A stretch of DNA of 64,000 nt from Chlamydiia bacterium. Its GTDB lineage: Bacteria; Chlamydiota; Chlamydiia; Chlamydiales; Rhabdochlamydiaceae. Positions 15,121-25,336 of the stretch are shown in pieces (within the stretch, counting starts at the first letter, position 1; each line of letters begins with the position of its first letter). The DNA lies in assembly GCA_963804085.1 (NCBI GenBank), contig CAWDOQ010000010.1, positions 64,001 to 128,000 of the forward strand. The letters run 5' to 3'. The notes under the pieces were generated by a model, which worked only from the letters and a program-made list of their open reading frames with translations, was not told the origin of the DNA and searched no databases. A program made the translations under genes and the position numbers.

Positions 15121-15348
15121 AACCTCATTTCTCCATCCTTTTTTCAACTTCATCTTACATTTTTCCTTTGTTAAAACCCACACAAAACCATAACACGCTC
15201 TAAATTAGCTGGTTGCGAAAAAGAGTGCCCCAAAGCGAGAAATGGACCTGAAAAGGACGGTAATGGACGCGGCGAAGAAAATAGTTTCTGTTGTTTTGCT
15301 CTTTTCGTTTAAGGGGCAATGTTGTTAGTCTGGGCGTGTGGTGGAAGC

Positions 15349-16437
15349 GTGAGCGTTAAAAATAGTGTTCTCAAGTGTTTGGTGTGGCTCTTCCGGGTGA
15401 AGAAGAAATCGGGGAGGGAGCGCCGTTTTCTCATCGTCTCAACGACGGGGCTCGGCGATAGTTTGTGGGCAACTCCTGCTATCAAAGCGCTGCGTCAGAG
15501 CCTGCCTGATTGCTACCTTGCGGTCTTGACAAGTCCTATCGGCAAGGAGATCTTCAAACACAATCGCCAGATAGATGAACTGTTCGTCGTAAAAAAACCT
15601 ATTCTGCTCTCGCTTTTTTTTCTTCTTTTTAAACTGCGCAAAAAAGAGATCGGGTCAATACTCCTTTTTCACACGTCCCAAAGAGCAGTTCTTCCCTTCT
15701 GCGCGCTCTTGGGGGCATGGAGGATTATCGGAACGGAAGGGATGAGCAAGGGGCTCGACTCACTTCTAACTGTTGCAGTAGATAAAAAGCCGATCCATGA
15801 GATCGAACGGCGGCTCGAGATCGTCTCTAAAGTCGGAGCGCACACCCTCGACCCGACTCTCGAATTTTATGTAACCGAGAGCGAAGAAGAGAGGTGCGAT
15901 AACTTCATAAAAAGAGAGGGCATCCCTTCTTATCTTCCTCTTGTCGGCCTCCATCCTGGCGCAAAAGACGCCTTTAAAAAGTGGCCTCCGGAGAAGTTTA
16001 TCGCTCTTGGCAACCGACTCGTCGACCACTTCGGCTGCCAGATCCTGGTCACAGGAAATGCGGAAGAAAAACCACTCGCAGAGAAGATCGTAAAAGGGAT
16101 TAAAGGCGCAGTATCTGCAGCGGGCCTACTCTCTTTGGGCGAGATGGGAGCGCTGATCAAGCGGATGTCTCTCATGGTAACTAACGATACGGGACCTATG
16201 CATGTCGCCTTTGCGCTCAAAACGCCCACGGTCGCTCTATTTGCGCCGACAGATCCCAAACTCTGCGGCCCTTATTTTATGCCTCTTTCTCATGTGATTG
16301 CAAAGAGGCGCACCTGTACCCCCTGCTTGAGAAAAAAGTGTCAGGATCCTTTCTGTATGCTTCAGATTTCCGAGGAGGAGGTTTACGACGCGGCCGTTCA
16401 ACTATTCTATAAGAGCAAAGCTGTTGAAAAGAGATAA
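15349..16437 (+). CDS. Glycosyltransferase family 9 (LPS heptosyltransferase-like)
   Basis: GLGDSLWATP, HPGA..KKWP, TNDTGPMHVA; start codon uncertain (15319 or 15349). Confidence 0.9.
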   Translation: MSVKNSVLKCLVWLFRVKKKSGRERRFLIVSTTGLGDSLWATPAIKALRQSLPDCYLAVLTSPIGKEIFKHNRQIDELFVVKKPILLSLFFLLFKLRKKEIGSILLFHTSQRAVLPFCALLGAWRIIGTEGMSKGLDSLLTVAVDKKPIHEIERRLEIVSKVGAHTLDPTLEFYVTESEEERCDNFIKREGIPSYLPLVGLHPGAKDAFKKWPPEKFIALGNRLVDHFGCQILVTGNAEEKPLAEKIVKGIKGAVSAAGLLSLGEMGALIKRMSLMVTNDTGPMHVAFALKTPTVALFAPTDPKLCGPYFMPLSHVIAKRRTCTPCLRKKCQDPFCMLQISEEEVYDAAVQLFYKSKAVEKR

Positions 16438-17590
16438 CCCCCTCATCTACATCGTCATCTTGAACTGGAATGGAAAAGAAGACACGCTTGCTTGTCTCAG
16501 CTCTCTAGAAAGAGTTCTTTATGCTCCTTTTCGGACAGTTGTCGTAGATAATGGCTCGACCGATGGATCGATAGAGGCGATCCGCGCAAAGTTTCGTCAA
16601 GAGCCACTTGCAAAAATCCCCGCCCCAGAAAAATCGAAGATTTTGAGTCAGTTTGCTGGGGCTGGCAGCAGCCCGAATCCCGCCAGCGGGGACATACTCG
16701 AGGAGAGTAGGACCCGATGGCCGGACAGCAAAATGGCTCAAAAGGGCAATTTTGCTGCGGCGGGGATTTTTGCAAGTGGCTCTCAAGTCACGCTGATCGA
16801 AAATGGGAAAAACTTAGGCTTTGCGGGTGGAAATAATGTCGGCATCCGCTTGGCACTTGTTGAGGGAGCAGACGCTATTTTTCTACTCAACAATGATACG
16901 GTTGTAGACCCTTATATTTTACAGGCATTTGCAAGTTCGTTATTAAACCATCCGGAAGCGGGCATTTTTGGCGCTAAACTCTACCTGCATAATGAACCCG
17001 ATCGCTTTGATCATTTGGGTGGCAGATGGAACAAAAAGAGGGCCGCTTTTGATTTTGTGGCTTTGCGTGAAAAAGATATAGGCCAGGAGCATCCCGCTCT
17101 TGACTACGCTTGCGGCGCTGCCCTTTTTGTCAAAAAAGAGGTGTTTGAAGCGGTGGGCCTTTTGGAGGAGAACTTTTTTCTGATCTGGGAAGAGGCCGAC
17201 TTTTGTGTGCGGGCGAGGCGCGCAGGCTTTCTTTCCCTCCTCTCAACTGACGCCAAAGTCTGGCATAAGGTCTCGGCCTCCTTTGTTGGAGGAAAGCCCC
17301 ACTCCACCTACTTCTGGTGGCGCGGTAGGCTACTCTGGATCGAAAGAAACTGTACGTTCTCTGAAAAAATAAGACTATATACCAGAGTCCTCATCCCTGA
17401 AATTTTTCACATTTGGAAACTGAGCATTCTGAAAAGCGCCCAGCTTAAACTGAATTCCCTTATTTCACCTGGACGCGACCAGACTCAAAAAAGAGAAAAG
17501 ATTGTAAAATATCGGGCAGCATTGCAAGGTGTAAAAGACTATCTATTTCGCAGGTTTGGCAGTGGGCCTGCTTGGATTTATAGTAGATAA
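16424..17590 (+). CDS. Glycosyltransferase family 2 carrying an in-frame 62-codon palindromic insertion
   Basis: ILNWNG, VVDNGSTD, NLGFAGGNN, LLNNDT, EEADFC. Confidence 0.9.
   Translation: MKRDNPLIYIVILNWNGKEDTLACLSSLERVLYAPFRTVVVDNGSTDGSIEAIRAKFRQEPLAKIPAPEKSKILSQFAGAGSSPNPASGDILEESRTRWPDSKMAQKGNFAAAGIFASGSQVTLIENGKNLGFAGGNNVGIRLALVEGADAIFLLNNDTVVDPYILQAFASSLLNHPEAGIFGAKLYLHNEPDRFDHLGGRWNKKRAAFDFVALREKDIGQEHPALDYACGAALFVKKEVFEAVGLLEENFFLIWEEADFCVRARRAGFLSLLSTDAKVWHKVSASFVGGKPHSTYFWWRGRLLWIERNCTFSEKIRLYTRVLIPEIFHIWKLSILKSAQLKLNSLISPGRDQTQKREKIVKYRAALQGVKDYLFRRFGSGPAWIYSR
16601..16782. mobile_element. MITE / RPE-like palindromic element (182 bp)
   Basis: 24-bp perfect TIRs GAGCCACTTGCAAAAATCCCCGCC (16601-16624/16759-16782); TCAA direct repeats at 16597-16600 and 16783-16786. 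Confidence 0.9.
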
Positions 17591-21289: not shown

Positions 21290-22129
21290 GTGCCATCATC
21301 GCCCACATCTGATTACCTCTCGCTCGTTTTGAGCATGCCCCAGTTTCCGCCGCTGAGCGTTCTCCTCTTCTTCCTCTTGGCCCTCATGCGCATCGCACCC
21401 ATTGTCGCACTCGCTCCCTTCCTAGGAGCGAAATTGCCTGGCGGCGTAAAGATCGCCCTCGCTGTCGCCCTCGCAGCTATCTTTTTGCCGAATATCATGC
21501 TGACGAGTAGCAAGGCAGTCAGCTTTGGAATGCCCTTCATCGGCTCCCTCTTAAAAGAGCTCTTCATAGGAGGGCTTCTCGGCTTTATGGTCTCCATTCC
21601 CTTCTACATCGCACAATCTTCGGGTGTGCTCATCGACTTCATGCGTGGCTCCTCAGCTCTCGGCGTAACCGATCCCACCATGCAAACGCAAGCGACACCC
21701 ATCGGCCTTCTTTACAACTATGTCCTCATCGTCCTCTTCTTTCAGCTCGATGGTCCCTTCATCTTCTTGGATGGACTCTTGCAATCCTACAGTGTAATCC
21801 CTGCAGACGGCTTCTTCTCTCCCGCCTTCTTCACCTTGCGGCTTCCCTTCTGGCAAAGCATTGCAGGGGTCTTGACTAAGCTCACAGCGCTCTCTATGCA
21901 GCTTGCAGCTCCTGCGCTTCTCTCGATCTTGATGGCTGAGATGTTCCTCGGCATCGCCAACAGGCTCGCTCCTCAAGTGCAGATCGCTTTTTTGGGTATG
22001 TCGATCAAGTCGCTTCTCGGTATTGCACTTCTCTGGGCAGGATGGTTTTTTATTTTGCAACAAGTGGGCAAACAAGCGCTGCTCTGGCTGAAAAATCTCT
22101 CGCTGCTTCTTCAGACAATTCCCAAGTAA
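21290..22129 (+). CDS. sctT: T3SS export apparatus subunit
   Basis: KELFIGGLLGF, LID..RG, GIANRLAPQVQI. Confidence 0.95.
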   Translation: MPSSPTSDYLSLVLSMPQFPPLSVLLFFLLALMRIAPIVALAPFLGAKLPGGVKIALAVALAAIFLPNIMLTSSKAVSFGMPFIGSLLKELFIGGLLGFMVSIPFYIAQSSGVLIDFMRGSSALGVTDPTMQTQATPIGLLYNYVLIVLFFQLDGPFIFLDGLLQSYSVIPADGFFSPAFFTLRLPFWQSIAGVLTKLTALSMQLAAPALLSILMAEMFLGIANRLAPQVQIAFLGMSIKSLLGIALLWAGWFFILQQVGKQALLWLKNLSLLLQTIPK

Positions 22130-22195
22130 ATTGGAAAATCGGACGATTTTTTGTTGACGCGATAGGAAATTAATAATTAGAGTACGTTTAATCAA

Positions 22196-22232
22196 TGATG
22201 AGAAGGCGACGCACAGTGTGTTGCCGTCATCA
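22196..22232 (+). promoter_or_regulatory. 5'-leader stem-loop of porin gene copy 1
   Basis: TGATGA...GGCGACGCA-CAG-TGTGTTGCC...TCATCA; pairing retained in copy 2 (about 23628-23664). Confidence 0.55.
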
Positions 22233-22286
22233 GATAGAACTTTACTTAACGATCCAACAGCCAAAGGTATCTTTATGGAGTGGAAT

Positions 22287-23417
22287 TTGAAAAACAAGAT
22301 GGGGCAAGCAGCTGCCTTATCACTCGTGGCTTTCACGAGCATTTTGAATGCTGCCGATGATGCGCAAATGCGCAACCTCGACAACCGCGTAACTGCTCTT
22401 GAGCAGAAAAAAGGCGCGGGCGGAATGATTAACCCACCGGCGCGTCCTGTAGTAAAAGACGGCGTGGACATCTTCCTCACAGGTGAAGTTCTCATTTGGA
22501 AAGCTCACCAAGAAGACATGACTTATGCTACTAAACTGGCAAGCACTCCTGGTATCATCGCTCCAAACAGCGGCAAGCTCGCTGACTGGAAAGGCAGATG
22601 GGGAACCGGCTTCCGTTTAGGCTTAGGCTACAACATGGAGCATGATGGTTGGGATGCGGATCTGATCTGGACAAGATACTATCAGACATCTCGCCGTAAC
22701 ACTGGTGGCAACCGCCATGGCGTTTTCGCTCCTCAATATCCAGTTCAACCTTTTACTTATGTAGTAGCTGACGCTGCTGCAGAAGCGCATGATAAAAAAT
22801 GGAAAGTGCGCCTCGATATGATTGACTTAGAGCTCGGTCGCGAGTTCTTTGTTAGCAAGTGGCTCACAATCCGTCCTCACATGGGCCTAAGAAATATCTG
22901 GGCTCGTCAGAAGATGAGAGTGGAGTATGAAGATGGCGTTTATGCTGTTCCACTAGCTGGCTTCTTACCTGGCGGTAGAGAGCAATTTACCTCCATGAAA
23001 AACAACTTCTGGGGTATCGGTCTCCGCGGCGGACTAGATTCGCAATGGGGATTGGGATGGGGCTTTAGCATCTACGGCAAAGCAGCTCTCTCCGTACTTT
23101 GGGGTCAAATGAAGGTAAATCAGAGCAGTGTAATATACAACACAGGCCGTACAGCTTCTGTTACTGCTGATTCCTTCAGCGATGTCCACCATGTTTGCAA
23201 ACCAGTTGCTGATATGGCACTCGGACTCCGTTATGACACCACATTTAGCGATGATTCTTATGCGTTCGGCGTGTTTGCCGGCTGGGAACACCACTATTTC
23301 TGGGCTCAAAACAAGCTGTTTAGATTCAATTCATCTTCTCCTACGTTCTCAGTTAACCAAAATGCTGGAGACCTCTCCACATCAGGTGTGAACGTTGGGT
23401 TAAGCTTTGATTTCTAA
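22287..23417 (+). CDS. Lpg1974/MOMP-like outer-membrane porin, copy 1
   Basis: Signal peptide, GFRLGLGY, HDGWD, DLELGREFFVS, GWEHH, terminal FDF; TTG start after GGAG (alternative ATG at 22275). Confidence 0.85.
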   Translation: MKNKMGQAAALSLVAFTSILNAADDAQMRNLDNRVTALEQKKGAGGMINPPARPVVKDGVDIFLTGEVLIWKAHQEDMTYATKLASTPGIIAPNSGKLADWKGRWGTGFRLGLGYNMEHDGWDADLIWTRYYQTSRRNTGGNRHGVFAPQYPVQPFTYVVADAAAEAHDKKWKVRLDMIDLELGREFFVSKWLTIRPHMGLRNIWARQKMRVEYEDGVYAVPLAGFLPGGREQFTSMKNNFWGIGLRGGLDSQWGLGWGFSIYGKAALSVLWGQMKVNQSSVIYNTGRTASVTADSFSDVHHVCKPVADMALGLRYDTTFSDDSYAFGVFAGWEHHYFWAQNKLFRFNSSSPTFSVNQNAGDLSTSGVNVGLSFDF

Positions 23418-23455
23418 GCTAGTAGTCTGAAGAACGTTTGTTCTAAATGCTTTGG

Positions 23456-23483
23456 ACCATCCCTCTGAGCGGGATGGTTTTTT
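23456..23483 (+). terminator. Intrinsic terminator at the duplication junction
   Basis: ACCATCCC-7 nt-GGGATGGT followed by a T run. Confidence 0.75.
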
Positions 23484-23718
23484 ATTTTGCAGCAAGTGAG
23501 CAAACAAACACTGCTCTAGCTAAAAAATCTGTCGCACCTTCTCCAGACAATTCCCAAGTAAATTGGAAAATCGGACGATTTTTTGTTGACGCGAAATGAA
23601 ATTAATAATTAGAGTGAGTTTAATCAATGATGAGAAGGCAGTGCACAGTGTGTTGCCGTCATCAGATAGAACTTTACTTAACGATCCAAAACCCAGGGGG
23701 ATCTTTATGGAGTGGAAT

Positions 23719-24859
23719 TTGAAAAACAAAATGGGGCAAGCAGCTGCCTTATCACTCGTGGCTTTCACGAGCATTTTGAATGCTGCCGATGATGCGCAAA
23801 TGCGCAACCTCGACAACCGCGTAACTGCTCTCGAGCAGAAAAAAGGCGCGGGCGGAATGATTAACCCACCAGCACGTCCAGTAGTAAAAGACGGCGTGGA
23901 CATCTTCCTAACAGGTGAAGTTCTCATTTGGAAAGCTCACCAAGAAGACATGACCTATGCTACTAAACTGGCAAGCACTCCTGTTTCTGGCACTCCAAAC
24001 AGCGGCAAGCTCGCTAATTGGAAAGGCAGATGGGGAACCGGCTTCCGTTTAGGCCTAGGCTATAACATGGAGCATGATGGTTGGGATGCGGATCTGATCT
24101 GGACAAGATACTATCAGACATCTCGCCGTAACACTGGTGGCAACCGCCATGGTGTTTTCGCTCCTCAGTATCCAGTTCAACCTTTTGGTTATACAGTAGT
24201 TGACGTTGCAGCAGCAGAAGCGCATGATAAAAAATGGAAAGTGCGCCTCGATATGATCGACTTAGAGCTCGGTCGCGAGTTCTTTGTTAGCAAGTGGCTC
24301 ACAATCCGTCCTCACATGGGCCTAAGAAATATCTGGGCTCGTCAGAAGATGAGAGTGGAGTATGAAGATGGCGTCTTACGGATCTGGTGTACTAGCTAAC
24401 TTCGGTTTAGCTGGTGGTAGAGAGCAATTTACTTCCATGAAAAACAACTTCTGGGGTATCGGTCTCCGCGGCGGACTAGATTCGCAATGGGGATTGGGAT
24501 GTGGCTTTAGCATCTACGGCAAAGCAGCTCTCTCCATACTCTGGGGTCAAATGAAGGTAAATCAGAGCAGTGTAATATACAACACAGGCCGTACAGCCTC
24601 TGTTACTGCTGATTCCTTCAGCGATGTTCACCATGTTTGCAAACCAGTTGCTGATATGGCACTCGGACTCCGTTATGACACCACATTTAGCGATGATTCT
24701 TATGCGTTCGGCGTGTTTGCCGGCTGGGAACACCACTACTTCTGGGCTCAAAACAAACTGTTTAGATTCAATTCATCTTCTCCTACGTTCTCAGTTAACC
24801 AAAATGCTGGAGACCTCTCCACATCAGGTGTGAACGTTGGACTAAGCTTTGATTTCTAA
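23719..24859 (+). CDS. Lpg1974/MOMP-like porin, copy 2 (one extra base near 24376)
   Basis: Near-identical to copy 1; removing one base at GTCTTAC restores a 379-aa frame. Confidence 0.8.
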
Positions 24860-24889
24860 GCTAGTAGTCTGAAGAACGTTTGTTCTTAT

Positions 24890-24927: not shown

Positions 24928-25315
24928 GGAGTGCGGTGCTGCGGAGACAATGAATGTGCTGGGGGCACATTTATTTGCAGAGCAGTAGCTACTGCCGTTG
25001 CTCAATGCTGTATCAGGCTTGATAAAGTCAGACCTTTGAATAGCAGGACTTGTCGCTGCTCTTCAAAGACATCGCGACGAGTCGCGATGGAGAAAAGCGG
25101 TGACAAGTCACCGCACTCCATACAAAAAGGATCCACTCTTCATTAGCCAGCATCTGAGCAAGTAGTCCAAGATCCCTGAAAGGGCTAACAATTCTTATGT
25201 GGAGTGCGGCGACTCGTCGCCGCTTTCATAGACAGCGACTTGTCGCTGCTCTTCAAAGACATCGCGACGAGTCGCGATGGAGAAAAGCGGTGACAAGTCA
25301 CCGCACTCCATACAA
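24927..25315. repeat. REP-like palindromic elements, family B (TGGAGTGCGG...CCGCACTCCA), two copies
   Basis: 79-bp perfect direct repeat 25047-25125/25237-25315; nested GAC-NNN-GTC hairpins. Confidence 0.85.
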
Positions 25316-25336
25316 GAAGGATCTACGCTTCAAAGA

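Follow-up and report, generated by a model that had tools for sequence, protein, structure and literature searches.

Short palindromic repeats that enter protein-coding genes in frame have a precedent in the Rickettsia palindromic elements (RPEs), families of which were reportedly described by Ogata et al. in 2000 and 2002. Two papers present in-frame insertion of miniature transposable elements with inverted repeats (MITEs) as an established phenomenon with the RPEs as its extreme case, and give Rickettsia, Coxiella, enterobacteria and cyanobacteria as organisms in which MITEs are known to add residues to proteins (PMC10969869, PMC5896051); the Correia repeat enclosed elements (CREE) of Neisseria and the enterobacterial repetitive intergenic consensus (ERIC) sequences are likewise named among small repeats (PMC10969869). 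Here we analyse a 64,000-nt stretch of DNA, hereafter the window, from a Rhabdochlamydiaceae metagenome-assembled genome (MAG), in which a MITE of 182 bp lies inside a gene for a GT2-family glycosyltransferase and lengthens it by 62 codons. The window is part of contig C10 of this genome (2.13 Mb in 24 contigs, 91% complete), and coordinates without a contig label refer to it. Taken as a whole, we regard it as highly probable that a transposable element of environmental chlamydiae was inserted in frame and is carried by the protein as a tolerated loop. Chlamydiota are usually thought of as having small, repeat-poor genomes.

Correia and ERIC elements are small repeats bounded by terminal inverted repeats (TIRs); an active partner is not known from the same genome, the hairpins are strong, and some copies lie within genes and have open frames. 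The duplication made by Correia elements is TA, and promoters and integration host factor (IHF) sites are present in them, whereas the chlamydial element has a target site duplication (TSD) of 4 bp, and no promoter-like site was found between 16300 and 17000. QMITE1 and QMITE2 of Coxiella burnetii, as described in PMC5896051, resemble it in having TIRs of ~25 nt, a transcript fold near -113 kcal/mol, a mostly intergenic location and occasional in-frame insertions that add residues (enhC, hypothetical proteins). Direct repeats of 7-9 bp (PMC5896051) instead of 4 bp set QMITE2 apart, and sequence and host are unrelated; the chlamydial insert lies within a conserved catalytic domain, and both empty and filled natural alleles are seen. 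With RPE-1 to RPE-10, as PMC10969869 presents them, the locus shares a palindromic repeat of ~150-180 bp in an obligate intracellular bacterium, an in-frame position in conserved enzyme genes, a peptide added where the fold permits it and one preferred coding frame. The host phylum is another one, however, the chlamydial family has clear TIRs and a 4-bp TSD, and whereas many RPE copies are described as lying in frame within open reading frames (ORFs; PMC10969869), only one of 37 other unique chlamydial copies lies deep in an ORF. The label "RPE-like", given to the insert in an earlier note on this DNA, holds as an analogy (palindromic, in frame, loop-forming), but no link in sequence was found, the peptide being unmatched in NCBIfam and Pfam; nearly all copies, moreover, are intergenic. 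NCBIfam, which presumably holds RPE domain models, contains no model that matches the 63-aa element peptide at E≤10, and Pfam none at E≤1.

A full-text literature search, judged by titles and the beginnings of abstracts, returned no paper describing a MITE in Chlamydiota; "MITE" and "palindrom" do not occur in two Rhabdochlamydia genome papers, and a paper on Cardinium MITEs mentions chlamydiae only in a reference. This agrees with the statement of the earlier note that no coding palindromic family has been described in the phylum, and as far as these searches reach the family is new, although its kind is known, and had not been noted in Chlamydiota before.

Anatomy and transposition of the element

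Direct reading of the sequence bears out the anatomy proposed in the earlier note in every detail, namely the position, the length, the 24-bp TIRs, the TCAA duplication and the addition of 186 nt without a stop codon (Table 1). The left TIR reads GAGCCACTTGCAAAAATCCCCGCC and the right one is its exact reverse complement; a repeat finder gives longer arms of 35 nt that are 94% complementary (16600-16634 with 16749-16783). Each strand of the window holds exactly one copy of the 23-nt TIR core, which is absent from all of 100 dinucleotide shuffles. The element folds as a single long rod of -117.8 kcal/mol, compared with -63.3 ± 4.6 kcal/mol for shuffled sequences (z = -12), and is too short for a transposase gene. 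Together with one TCAA, its 182 bp make up 186 nt or 62 stop-free codons, through which the host ORF continues as EPLAKIPAPEK...GIFASGSQ (GAG CCA CTT encoding E P L), the peptide given in the note. The features of prokaryotic MITEs named in PMC10969869 include AT-richness, integration into AT-rich DNA between genes and a transcript with a stable stem-loop. With a GC content of 56%, against 47.9% for the genome, the element is not AT-rich; the TSDs of the family are AT-rich, and most copies are intergenic.

In-silico removal of the 186 nt joins ...AKFRQ to VTLIENGKNLGF..., which is the state of all 19 aligned orthologs. A GT2 ortholog is present in 20 of 24 genomes of the same family, and in the 19 orthologous ORFs that were extracted residues 61-122 are absent throughout, with the alignment gap falling exactly at the borders of the element. 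An empty site is also seen in nature. Among Logan contigs from four public metagenome runs, aligned to positions 16200-17200, a 154-nt contig of run X4 joins 16553-16596 to 16783-16892, skipping the 186 nt with three other differences. The left junction is spanned by a contig of run X2 (16324-16648) with 10 differences; across the right junction run another X2 contig (16627-17200) with 23 differences and a contig of run X3 (16722-16949) with two. Filled and empty alleles thus coexist in nature, in contigs from three studies. The empty X4 allele may be ancestral, or it may have arisen by an exact deletion between the TCAA(G) repeats.

Since the X2 and X3 contigs independently bridge the junctions, the insertion is not an artefact of assembly. 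That the source is a MAG is the one circumstance in favour of an assembly chimera at the junctions, or of 62 ancestral residues lost everywhere else; both ideas are refuted by the empty state of 19/19 orthologs, the eightfold repetition of the DNA in the genome, the presence of the TSD, and the filled and empty states on independent contigs from three studies, so that we give them next to no credence.

The mobility of the family is visible at other sites as well. The survey of TSDs covered 38 unique full-length copies bounded by GAG...CTC termini. The 4-nt flanks are identical in 14 of them and agree at three of four positions in five more, the chance of a perfect match being 1/256 per copy. 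Because GAAA, TAAT, AGAA and AAAC occur as TSDs in other MAGs, the duplication is a true one of 4 bp and not one of 2 bp extended by a terminal A/T pair. A copy at C10:153522, which stood outside the survey of TSDs and frames, has perfect TTTA/TTTA flanks. The copy on contig C7 is nested in a different repeat of ~131 bp, all eight other aligned copies of which lack the element, most of them reading uninterrupted from ...CCCCTG into AAGGGG.... Altogether, TIRs, TSD, multiple copies, small size, lack of a transposase gene and filled versus empty sites support a real MITE; the earlier note had suggested a non-autonomous transposon whose excision would restore the canonical GT2 sequence, and both points are backed by these observations.

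Two copies, C10:153523-153706 and C8:46092-46273, lie where convergent genes end, exactly between their stop codons or abutting them, and the overlap of a TAG or TAA stop with TSD and terminus at these two sites hints at a preference for T/A-rich stop-codon contexts.

Table 1. Positions of the element, of its host gene and of related features (window coordinates unless a contig or locus is given)
Feature	Position	Strand	Basis
Left copy of the TSD, TCAA	16597..16600		direct sequence; X4 contig skips exactly 186 nt, 16596 to 16783
MITE, 182 bp, GAG...CTC termini	16601..16782	+	sequence, repeat finder, fold, 8 full genome copies
Left TIR, 24 nt, perfect	16601..16624	+	sequence, repeat finder, shuffle control
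Right TIR, 24 nt, perfect reverse complement of the left TIR	16759..16782	-	sequence, repeat finder, shuffle control
Right copy of the TSD, TCAA	16783..16786		sequence; X4 contig junction
GT2-family glycosyltransferase of GT-A fold (host gene), 388 aa with insert, ~326 aa without	16424..17590	+	Pfam, AlphaFold2, Foldseek
Upstream GT9 (heptosyltransferase-family) gene	15319..16437	+	PF01075, E 6.8e-34; 14-nt overlap with GT2 start
288-aa protein with MITE relic, no Pfam match	C24:3928-4791 (L009:969-1832)	-	frame same as GT2 copy

The interrupted glycosyltransferase gene

The host ORF matches PF13641 with 44.5 bits (cut-off 27) and PF00535 with 44.3 bits (cut-off 23.3); rhamnosyltransferase and GlfT1-type models of NCBIfam are matched weakly, below their cut-offs. 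A sequence comparison of the protein with the PDB gave no hit at E≤0.001. A structure model, calculated by AlphaFold2 with the 19 orthologs as alignment, has a mean predicted local distance difference test (pLDDT) score of 85.6 and a predicted template modelling (pTM) score of 0.83. Foldseek aligned this model with GlfT2, ppGalNAc-T2 and RmlT at E ~1e-11 and a probability of 1.00. The core is predicted with pLDDT values above 90, whereas residues ~61-121, which derive from the insert, score 28-57. These insert-derived residues (61-122 in all) are hydrophilic and free of cysteine, and the model places them between helix 49-56 and strand 122-126, the second helix and third strand of the GT-A fold, in a low-confidence loop compatible with the fold. 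To judge from the Rossmann-like topology, this helix-to-strand connection would face away from the nucleotide-sugar site. All 50 columns that are invariant in the alignment of 20 sequences are intact in the window protein, including D42, N43, S45 and D47 as well as L155, N156, N157, D158 and T159.

We propose the following course of events. A 182-bp MITE of environmental chlamydiae would have been inserted into the GT2 gene by a transposase acting in trans and making cuts with a 4-bp stagger. As the inserted length is 186 nt and the strand and frame used are stop-free, the gene would read through the hairpin and gain 62 residues, which probably form a disordered loop at the surface of the protein, after helix 2 and before strand 3, and the enzyme most likely still works.

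The comparison of the two filled alleles bears on this last step. Downstream of the insert, the X2 allele differs from the window at 20 positions, of which 17 are synonymous and three nonsynonymous, with no indel; upstream in the gene two of three differences are synonymous, while all three differences inside the element change a residue. If the insertion is common to both alleles by descent, this pattern means purifying selection on the interrupted gene and none on the insert. The interrupted GT2 gene hence appears to be still under purifying selection, and the synonymous bias is the strongest available evidence for the production of a working protein. No RNA run appeared among the sequencing runs listed, a result that is neutral as to expression.

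It may instead be that the insertion killed GT2 and that we are looking at a young pseudogene, whose frame is open only through recency and a chance lack of stops. The family has recently been active, given the 98% identity of the nearest copy on C7, the frame used is open in 22 of the 38 copies by composition alone, and the mRNA would contain an extreme hairpin, all of which speaks for a dead gene. A second filled allele that has diverged by 3-4% with no indel and with 17/20 synonymous downstream differences does not fit such a gene, nor do the complete set of invariant family residues and the position of the insert at a predicted loop rather than within a helix or strand. On balance we consider a pseudogene unlikely.

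Several points weigh against an in-frame insertion that is tolerated by a working enzyme. No autonomous partner with these TIRs was found in the own genome or in the MAG with more than 100 copies, and transposition in trans is therefore inferred. Evidence for the empty X4 allele comes from a single contig of 154 nt with a depth of 2, the filled X2 allele was assembled from two contigs that overlap by 22 nt, and the MAG itself is 91% complete with 5% contamination and some near-duplicate contigs. Low AlphaFold confidence is expected for any sequence that is absent from the alignment, and the loop is therefore no independent proof of tolerance. A recent spread of the insertion by recombination into diverged, selected genes would give the same synonymous bias, and a hairpin of -118 kcal/mol in the mRNA could lower expression.

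The suggestion of the earlier note that the element alters surface-glycan enzymes received no support from any test; a tolerated loop that would be neutral fits the data better. For annotation it matters that 62 residues in this GT2 protein, and 61 in the LigD protein described below, are derived from a transposon and are not a new domain. The presence/absence polymorphism in a conserved enzyme furthermore makes it possible to test, by comparison of natural alleles, whether loops derived from selfish DNA are tolerated or useful.

Because the two genes overlap by 14 nt, the upstream GT9 gene and the GT2 gene seem to form one operon, which we suggest serves a surface glycan. Downstream of the GT2 gene lies a YscJ/FliF-family type III secretion gene.

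The repeat family, its foldback and its coding copies

Eight full copies in the own genome are 84-98% identical to the window copy, the copy on C7 being the nearest at 98%; one relic of 72% identity on C24 and three solo TIR-like ends add to these. Among 40 relatives, a match to the element at E≤0.001 was found in 4 of 24 genomes of the same family and in none of 16 from other families of the order. An exact scan of public genomes with a conserved 19-nt core yielded at least 119 stretches, of which 80 loci were fetched. The element is matched by 45 of these (blastn); the remaining 35 are chance 19-mer hits in unrelated phyla or divergent variants. Among the matches listed, most record titles read "Chlamydiae bacterium", "Rhabdochlamydiaceae bacterium" or "Chlamydiia bacterium" and a few "Verrucomicrobia(e)" or "uncultured bacterium". 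In five genomes, hits to the TIR pattern numbered 129+119, 39+33, 17+9, 9+9 and 12+13 on the two strands, compared with 0-2 for a reversed control, and the MAG with the highest copy number contains ~125 elements, among them 73-bp mini forms made up of hardly anything besides the two ends. We are thus rather confident of a multi-genus family of 182-bp MITEs in environmental chlamydiae that is, as far as our searches reach, previously undescribed. When MAGs of environmental chlamydiae are annotated, a widespread family with clear ends, a 4-bp TSD and up to ~125 copies per genome will cause broken or confusing gene calls.

Four loci whose records are titled Verrucomicrobiae or Verrucomicrobia (L070, L121, L116, L131) hold full-length copies of 80-82% identity to the window element, closer to it than most copies from Chlamydiae-titled MAGs; either the labels are wrong and the MAGs are chlamydial, or there has been transfer of the element inside the Planctomycetes-Verrucomicrobia-Chlamydiae (PVC) group. 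Mini forms of ~73 bp occur in two MAGs (L091, L103) and consist of two TIRs and a AGAAAAATCGATGATTTTG core, flanked by perfect 4-bp duplications (TCTA, TGAT).

The foldback of the element is conserved. For the analysis of covariation 36 of the 38 copies were aligned, the 162-163-bp variants L076 and L090 being dropped. The TIR is conserved across the aligned copies, and the structure predicted by RNAalifold is a single rod with 68 pairs, both partners having changed in 35 of them. In this rod 96.6% of the cells are paired and 170 cells carry double changes, although such cell counts are inflated by kinship among copies and matching ends are expected of any element with TIRs. When the partners were slid by 1-3 columns, 39-52% of the cells remained paired, with 11-20 pairs and 17-31 cells showing double changes, and none of 500 shuffles reached the observed values. 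The inner helix (columns 84-96 with 121-133) shows double changes in 11 of its 13 pairs. Covariation in the interior suggests that the hairpin matters, be it for transposition or as a transcript.

A structure maintained in this way could point to an RNA or DNA element with a cellular role, such as a regulator, a terminator or a recombination or packaging site, whose location in GT2 would be incidental. Compensatory changes keep the rod in 35/68 pairs and three unpaired blocks are nearly invariant across genera, as one would expect of such an element. However, covariation of the arms is equally expected if both ends must fit one transposase or if the element passes through a hairpin, and many of the copies are kin, which inflates the cell counts. 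The TSDs and empty sites demonstrate transposition, the element matches no Rfam family at E≤1, and neither promoter-like nor terminator-like sites were found in 16300-17000. A cellular role of this kind strikes us as quite improbable, and a MITE remains our preferred explanation.

How often such MITEs enter proteins can be judged from the other copies. The only one among the 37 that lies deep in a long ORF is that in LigD; the next best case is a putative 253-aa ORF on the opposite strand. In the own genome the other copies are intergenic and in many cases adjoin a stop codon, or they lie upstream of genes, for instance of a dihydrolipoyl dehydrogenase-like ORF. The LigD copy (L087:2475-2656) lies in an 838-aa ORF (L087:1641-4154, + strand) of a MAG titled "Chlamydiae bacterium", inside the adenylation domain (ATP-dependent ligase domain). 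It has a perfect GCTA duplication and is read on the same strand and in the same frame as the GT2 copy, with the peptide EAVAKLPDPEKSMILSQFA.... In 6 of 6 genomes whose LigD orthologs could be matched on both flanks the insert is absent, with 6-15 nt in place of ~64 codons. A third in-frame case is the 72%-identical relic on C24, which in a protein of 288 aa follows the signal peptide and precedes the predicted barrel. The other members of its paralogous family measure ~200-250 aa and match only residues ~110-288; the family is distributed across the order, with a match in 20 of 41 genomes.

The frame used in GT2 and LigD is open in 22 of 38 copies and the other five frames in 3, 12, 5, 16 and 14. 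In the window copy it is the only stop-free frame that lacks cysteines, two other open frames having six and two. Most simply, this can be read as the work of a filter, by which most insertions into genes disappear and the survivors are those with a loop position, a benign frame and a length that is a multiple of three.

Alternatively, the loop may have been co-opted and may provide a new property, such as an interaction or a localisation signal, to GT2, LigD and the outer-membrane-type protein, making the element a chlamydial counterpart of the coding RPEs. Three in-frame cases (GT2, LigD, C24 relic) on the same strand and in the same frame lend some weight to this idea, as do the choice of the sole stop-free, cysteine-free frame of the window copy and the persistence of the filled allele across 3-4% divergence. 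With three of six frames open, however, each case would fall into the same frame by chance about 1 time in 3, and of the 37 other unique copies a single one is located far inside a long ORF. Moreover, 3/3 differences within the element change a residue while the flanks are biased to synonymous changes, the peptide has no family match and the empty allele coexists in nature. Co-option therefore seems quite improbable to us, and we retain the tolerated in-frame MITE insertion.

More broadly framed, the element might be the Chlamydiota counterpart of the coding palindromes of Rickettsia: a MITE with a constrained foldback whose one hydrophilic, cysteine-free frame was kept at least three times as a disordered loop, in GT2, in the ligase domain of LigD and in an outer-membrane-type protein. 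The interrupted GT2 gene would stay under purifying selection while empty alleles circulate, and the foldback would perhaps serve as a substrate of transposition or as a functional RNA. We put this forward tentatively, as a possibility on the less likely side; if it is true, the birth of a protein segment from selfish DNA could be watched as a live polymorphism.

Candidate partners and other repeats of the genome

No cognate transposase was found in the own genome or in the examined regions of the high-copy MAG, assemblies which are incomplete. In the own genome, 23 TIR-like hits at ≤4 mismatches in 20 nt include 16 from the eight copies, and no longer element has these ends; no transposase ORF lies near the three solo ends, which carry two mismatches each. 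By inspection, the larger repeats of the genome look like IS66-, IS3- and IS4-type elements, with different ends, and the IS4-like one has a 9-bp TSD. Identical 1186-bp insertion sequences at C14:2841-4026 and C19:209439-210624 comprise a 379-aa ORF, CTCTGTACTGGACAAAAAAT ends and 9-bp duplications.

In the high-copy MAG (>100 copies), four regions with widely spaced TIRs proved to contain only separate MITEs around ordinary genes. A 4-bp TSD with GAG termini would presumably fit the IS5/IS427 or IS701 groups of the ISfinder table. PF01609 has four matches in the high-copy MAG and none in a second MAG, PF13546 has one match, which is broken, and a TIR-like end is close to just one of the matches. 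At locus L060 a truncated MITE contains an IS5-family element, the ends of which are different.

In the high-copy MAG a distance of 37 bp separates an ISAs1 remnant (NF033564, E 1.9e-33) from a solo MITE-like end, and ISAs1 ends (CAGGGAAATTGCATGAAG...) resemble the MITE end (GAGGCAATTGCAAAACTCC). ISAs1-family elements occur in 76 of 301 genomes of the order, with ends CAGGG(A/C)AATTGCATGA... and up to 14 copies per genome (L200-L229). We reject ISAs1 as the parent, since 8 of 14 full-length chlamydial copies have duplications of 9-10 bp and those of the MITE measure 4 bp; the remnant ends in a CAGGG terminus of its own and is hence a neighbour, and among 30 ISAs1 loci only two weak matches to the TIR pattern were found at ≤3 mismatches (L220 and L223, with two and three mismatches).

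The own genome also contains other short palindromic repeats. One family of ~120 bp has dozens of copies, including window positions ~25047-25320 (C10:89047-89320), and a family of ~131 bp is represented just upstream of the window at C10:62807-62937; two more families flank the MITE copies on C19 and at C10:168893. A tandem duplication of ~1.4 kb with 94% identity occupies window positions 22031-24886 (C10:86031-87444 and C10:87463-88886). Furthermore, near-duplicate contigs are 95-98% identical over 6-7 kb (C1 and C3; C9 and C10:214057-220668; C7:4898-11202 and C19:339640-345937), which suggests that two strains were co-assembled in the MAG and fits its 5% contamination.

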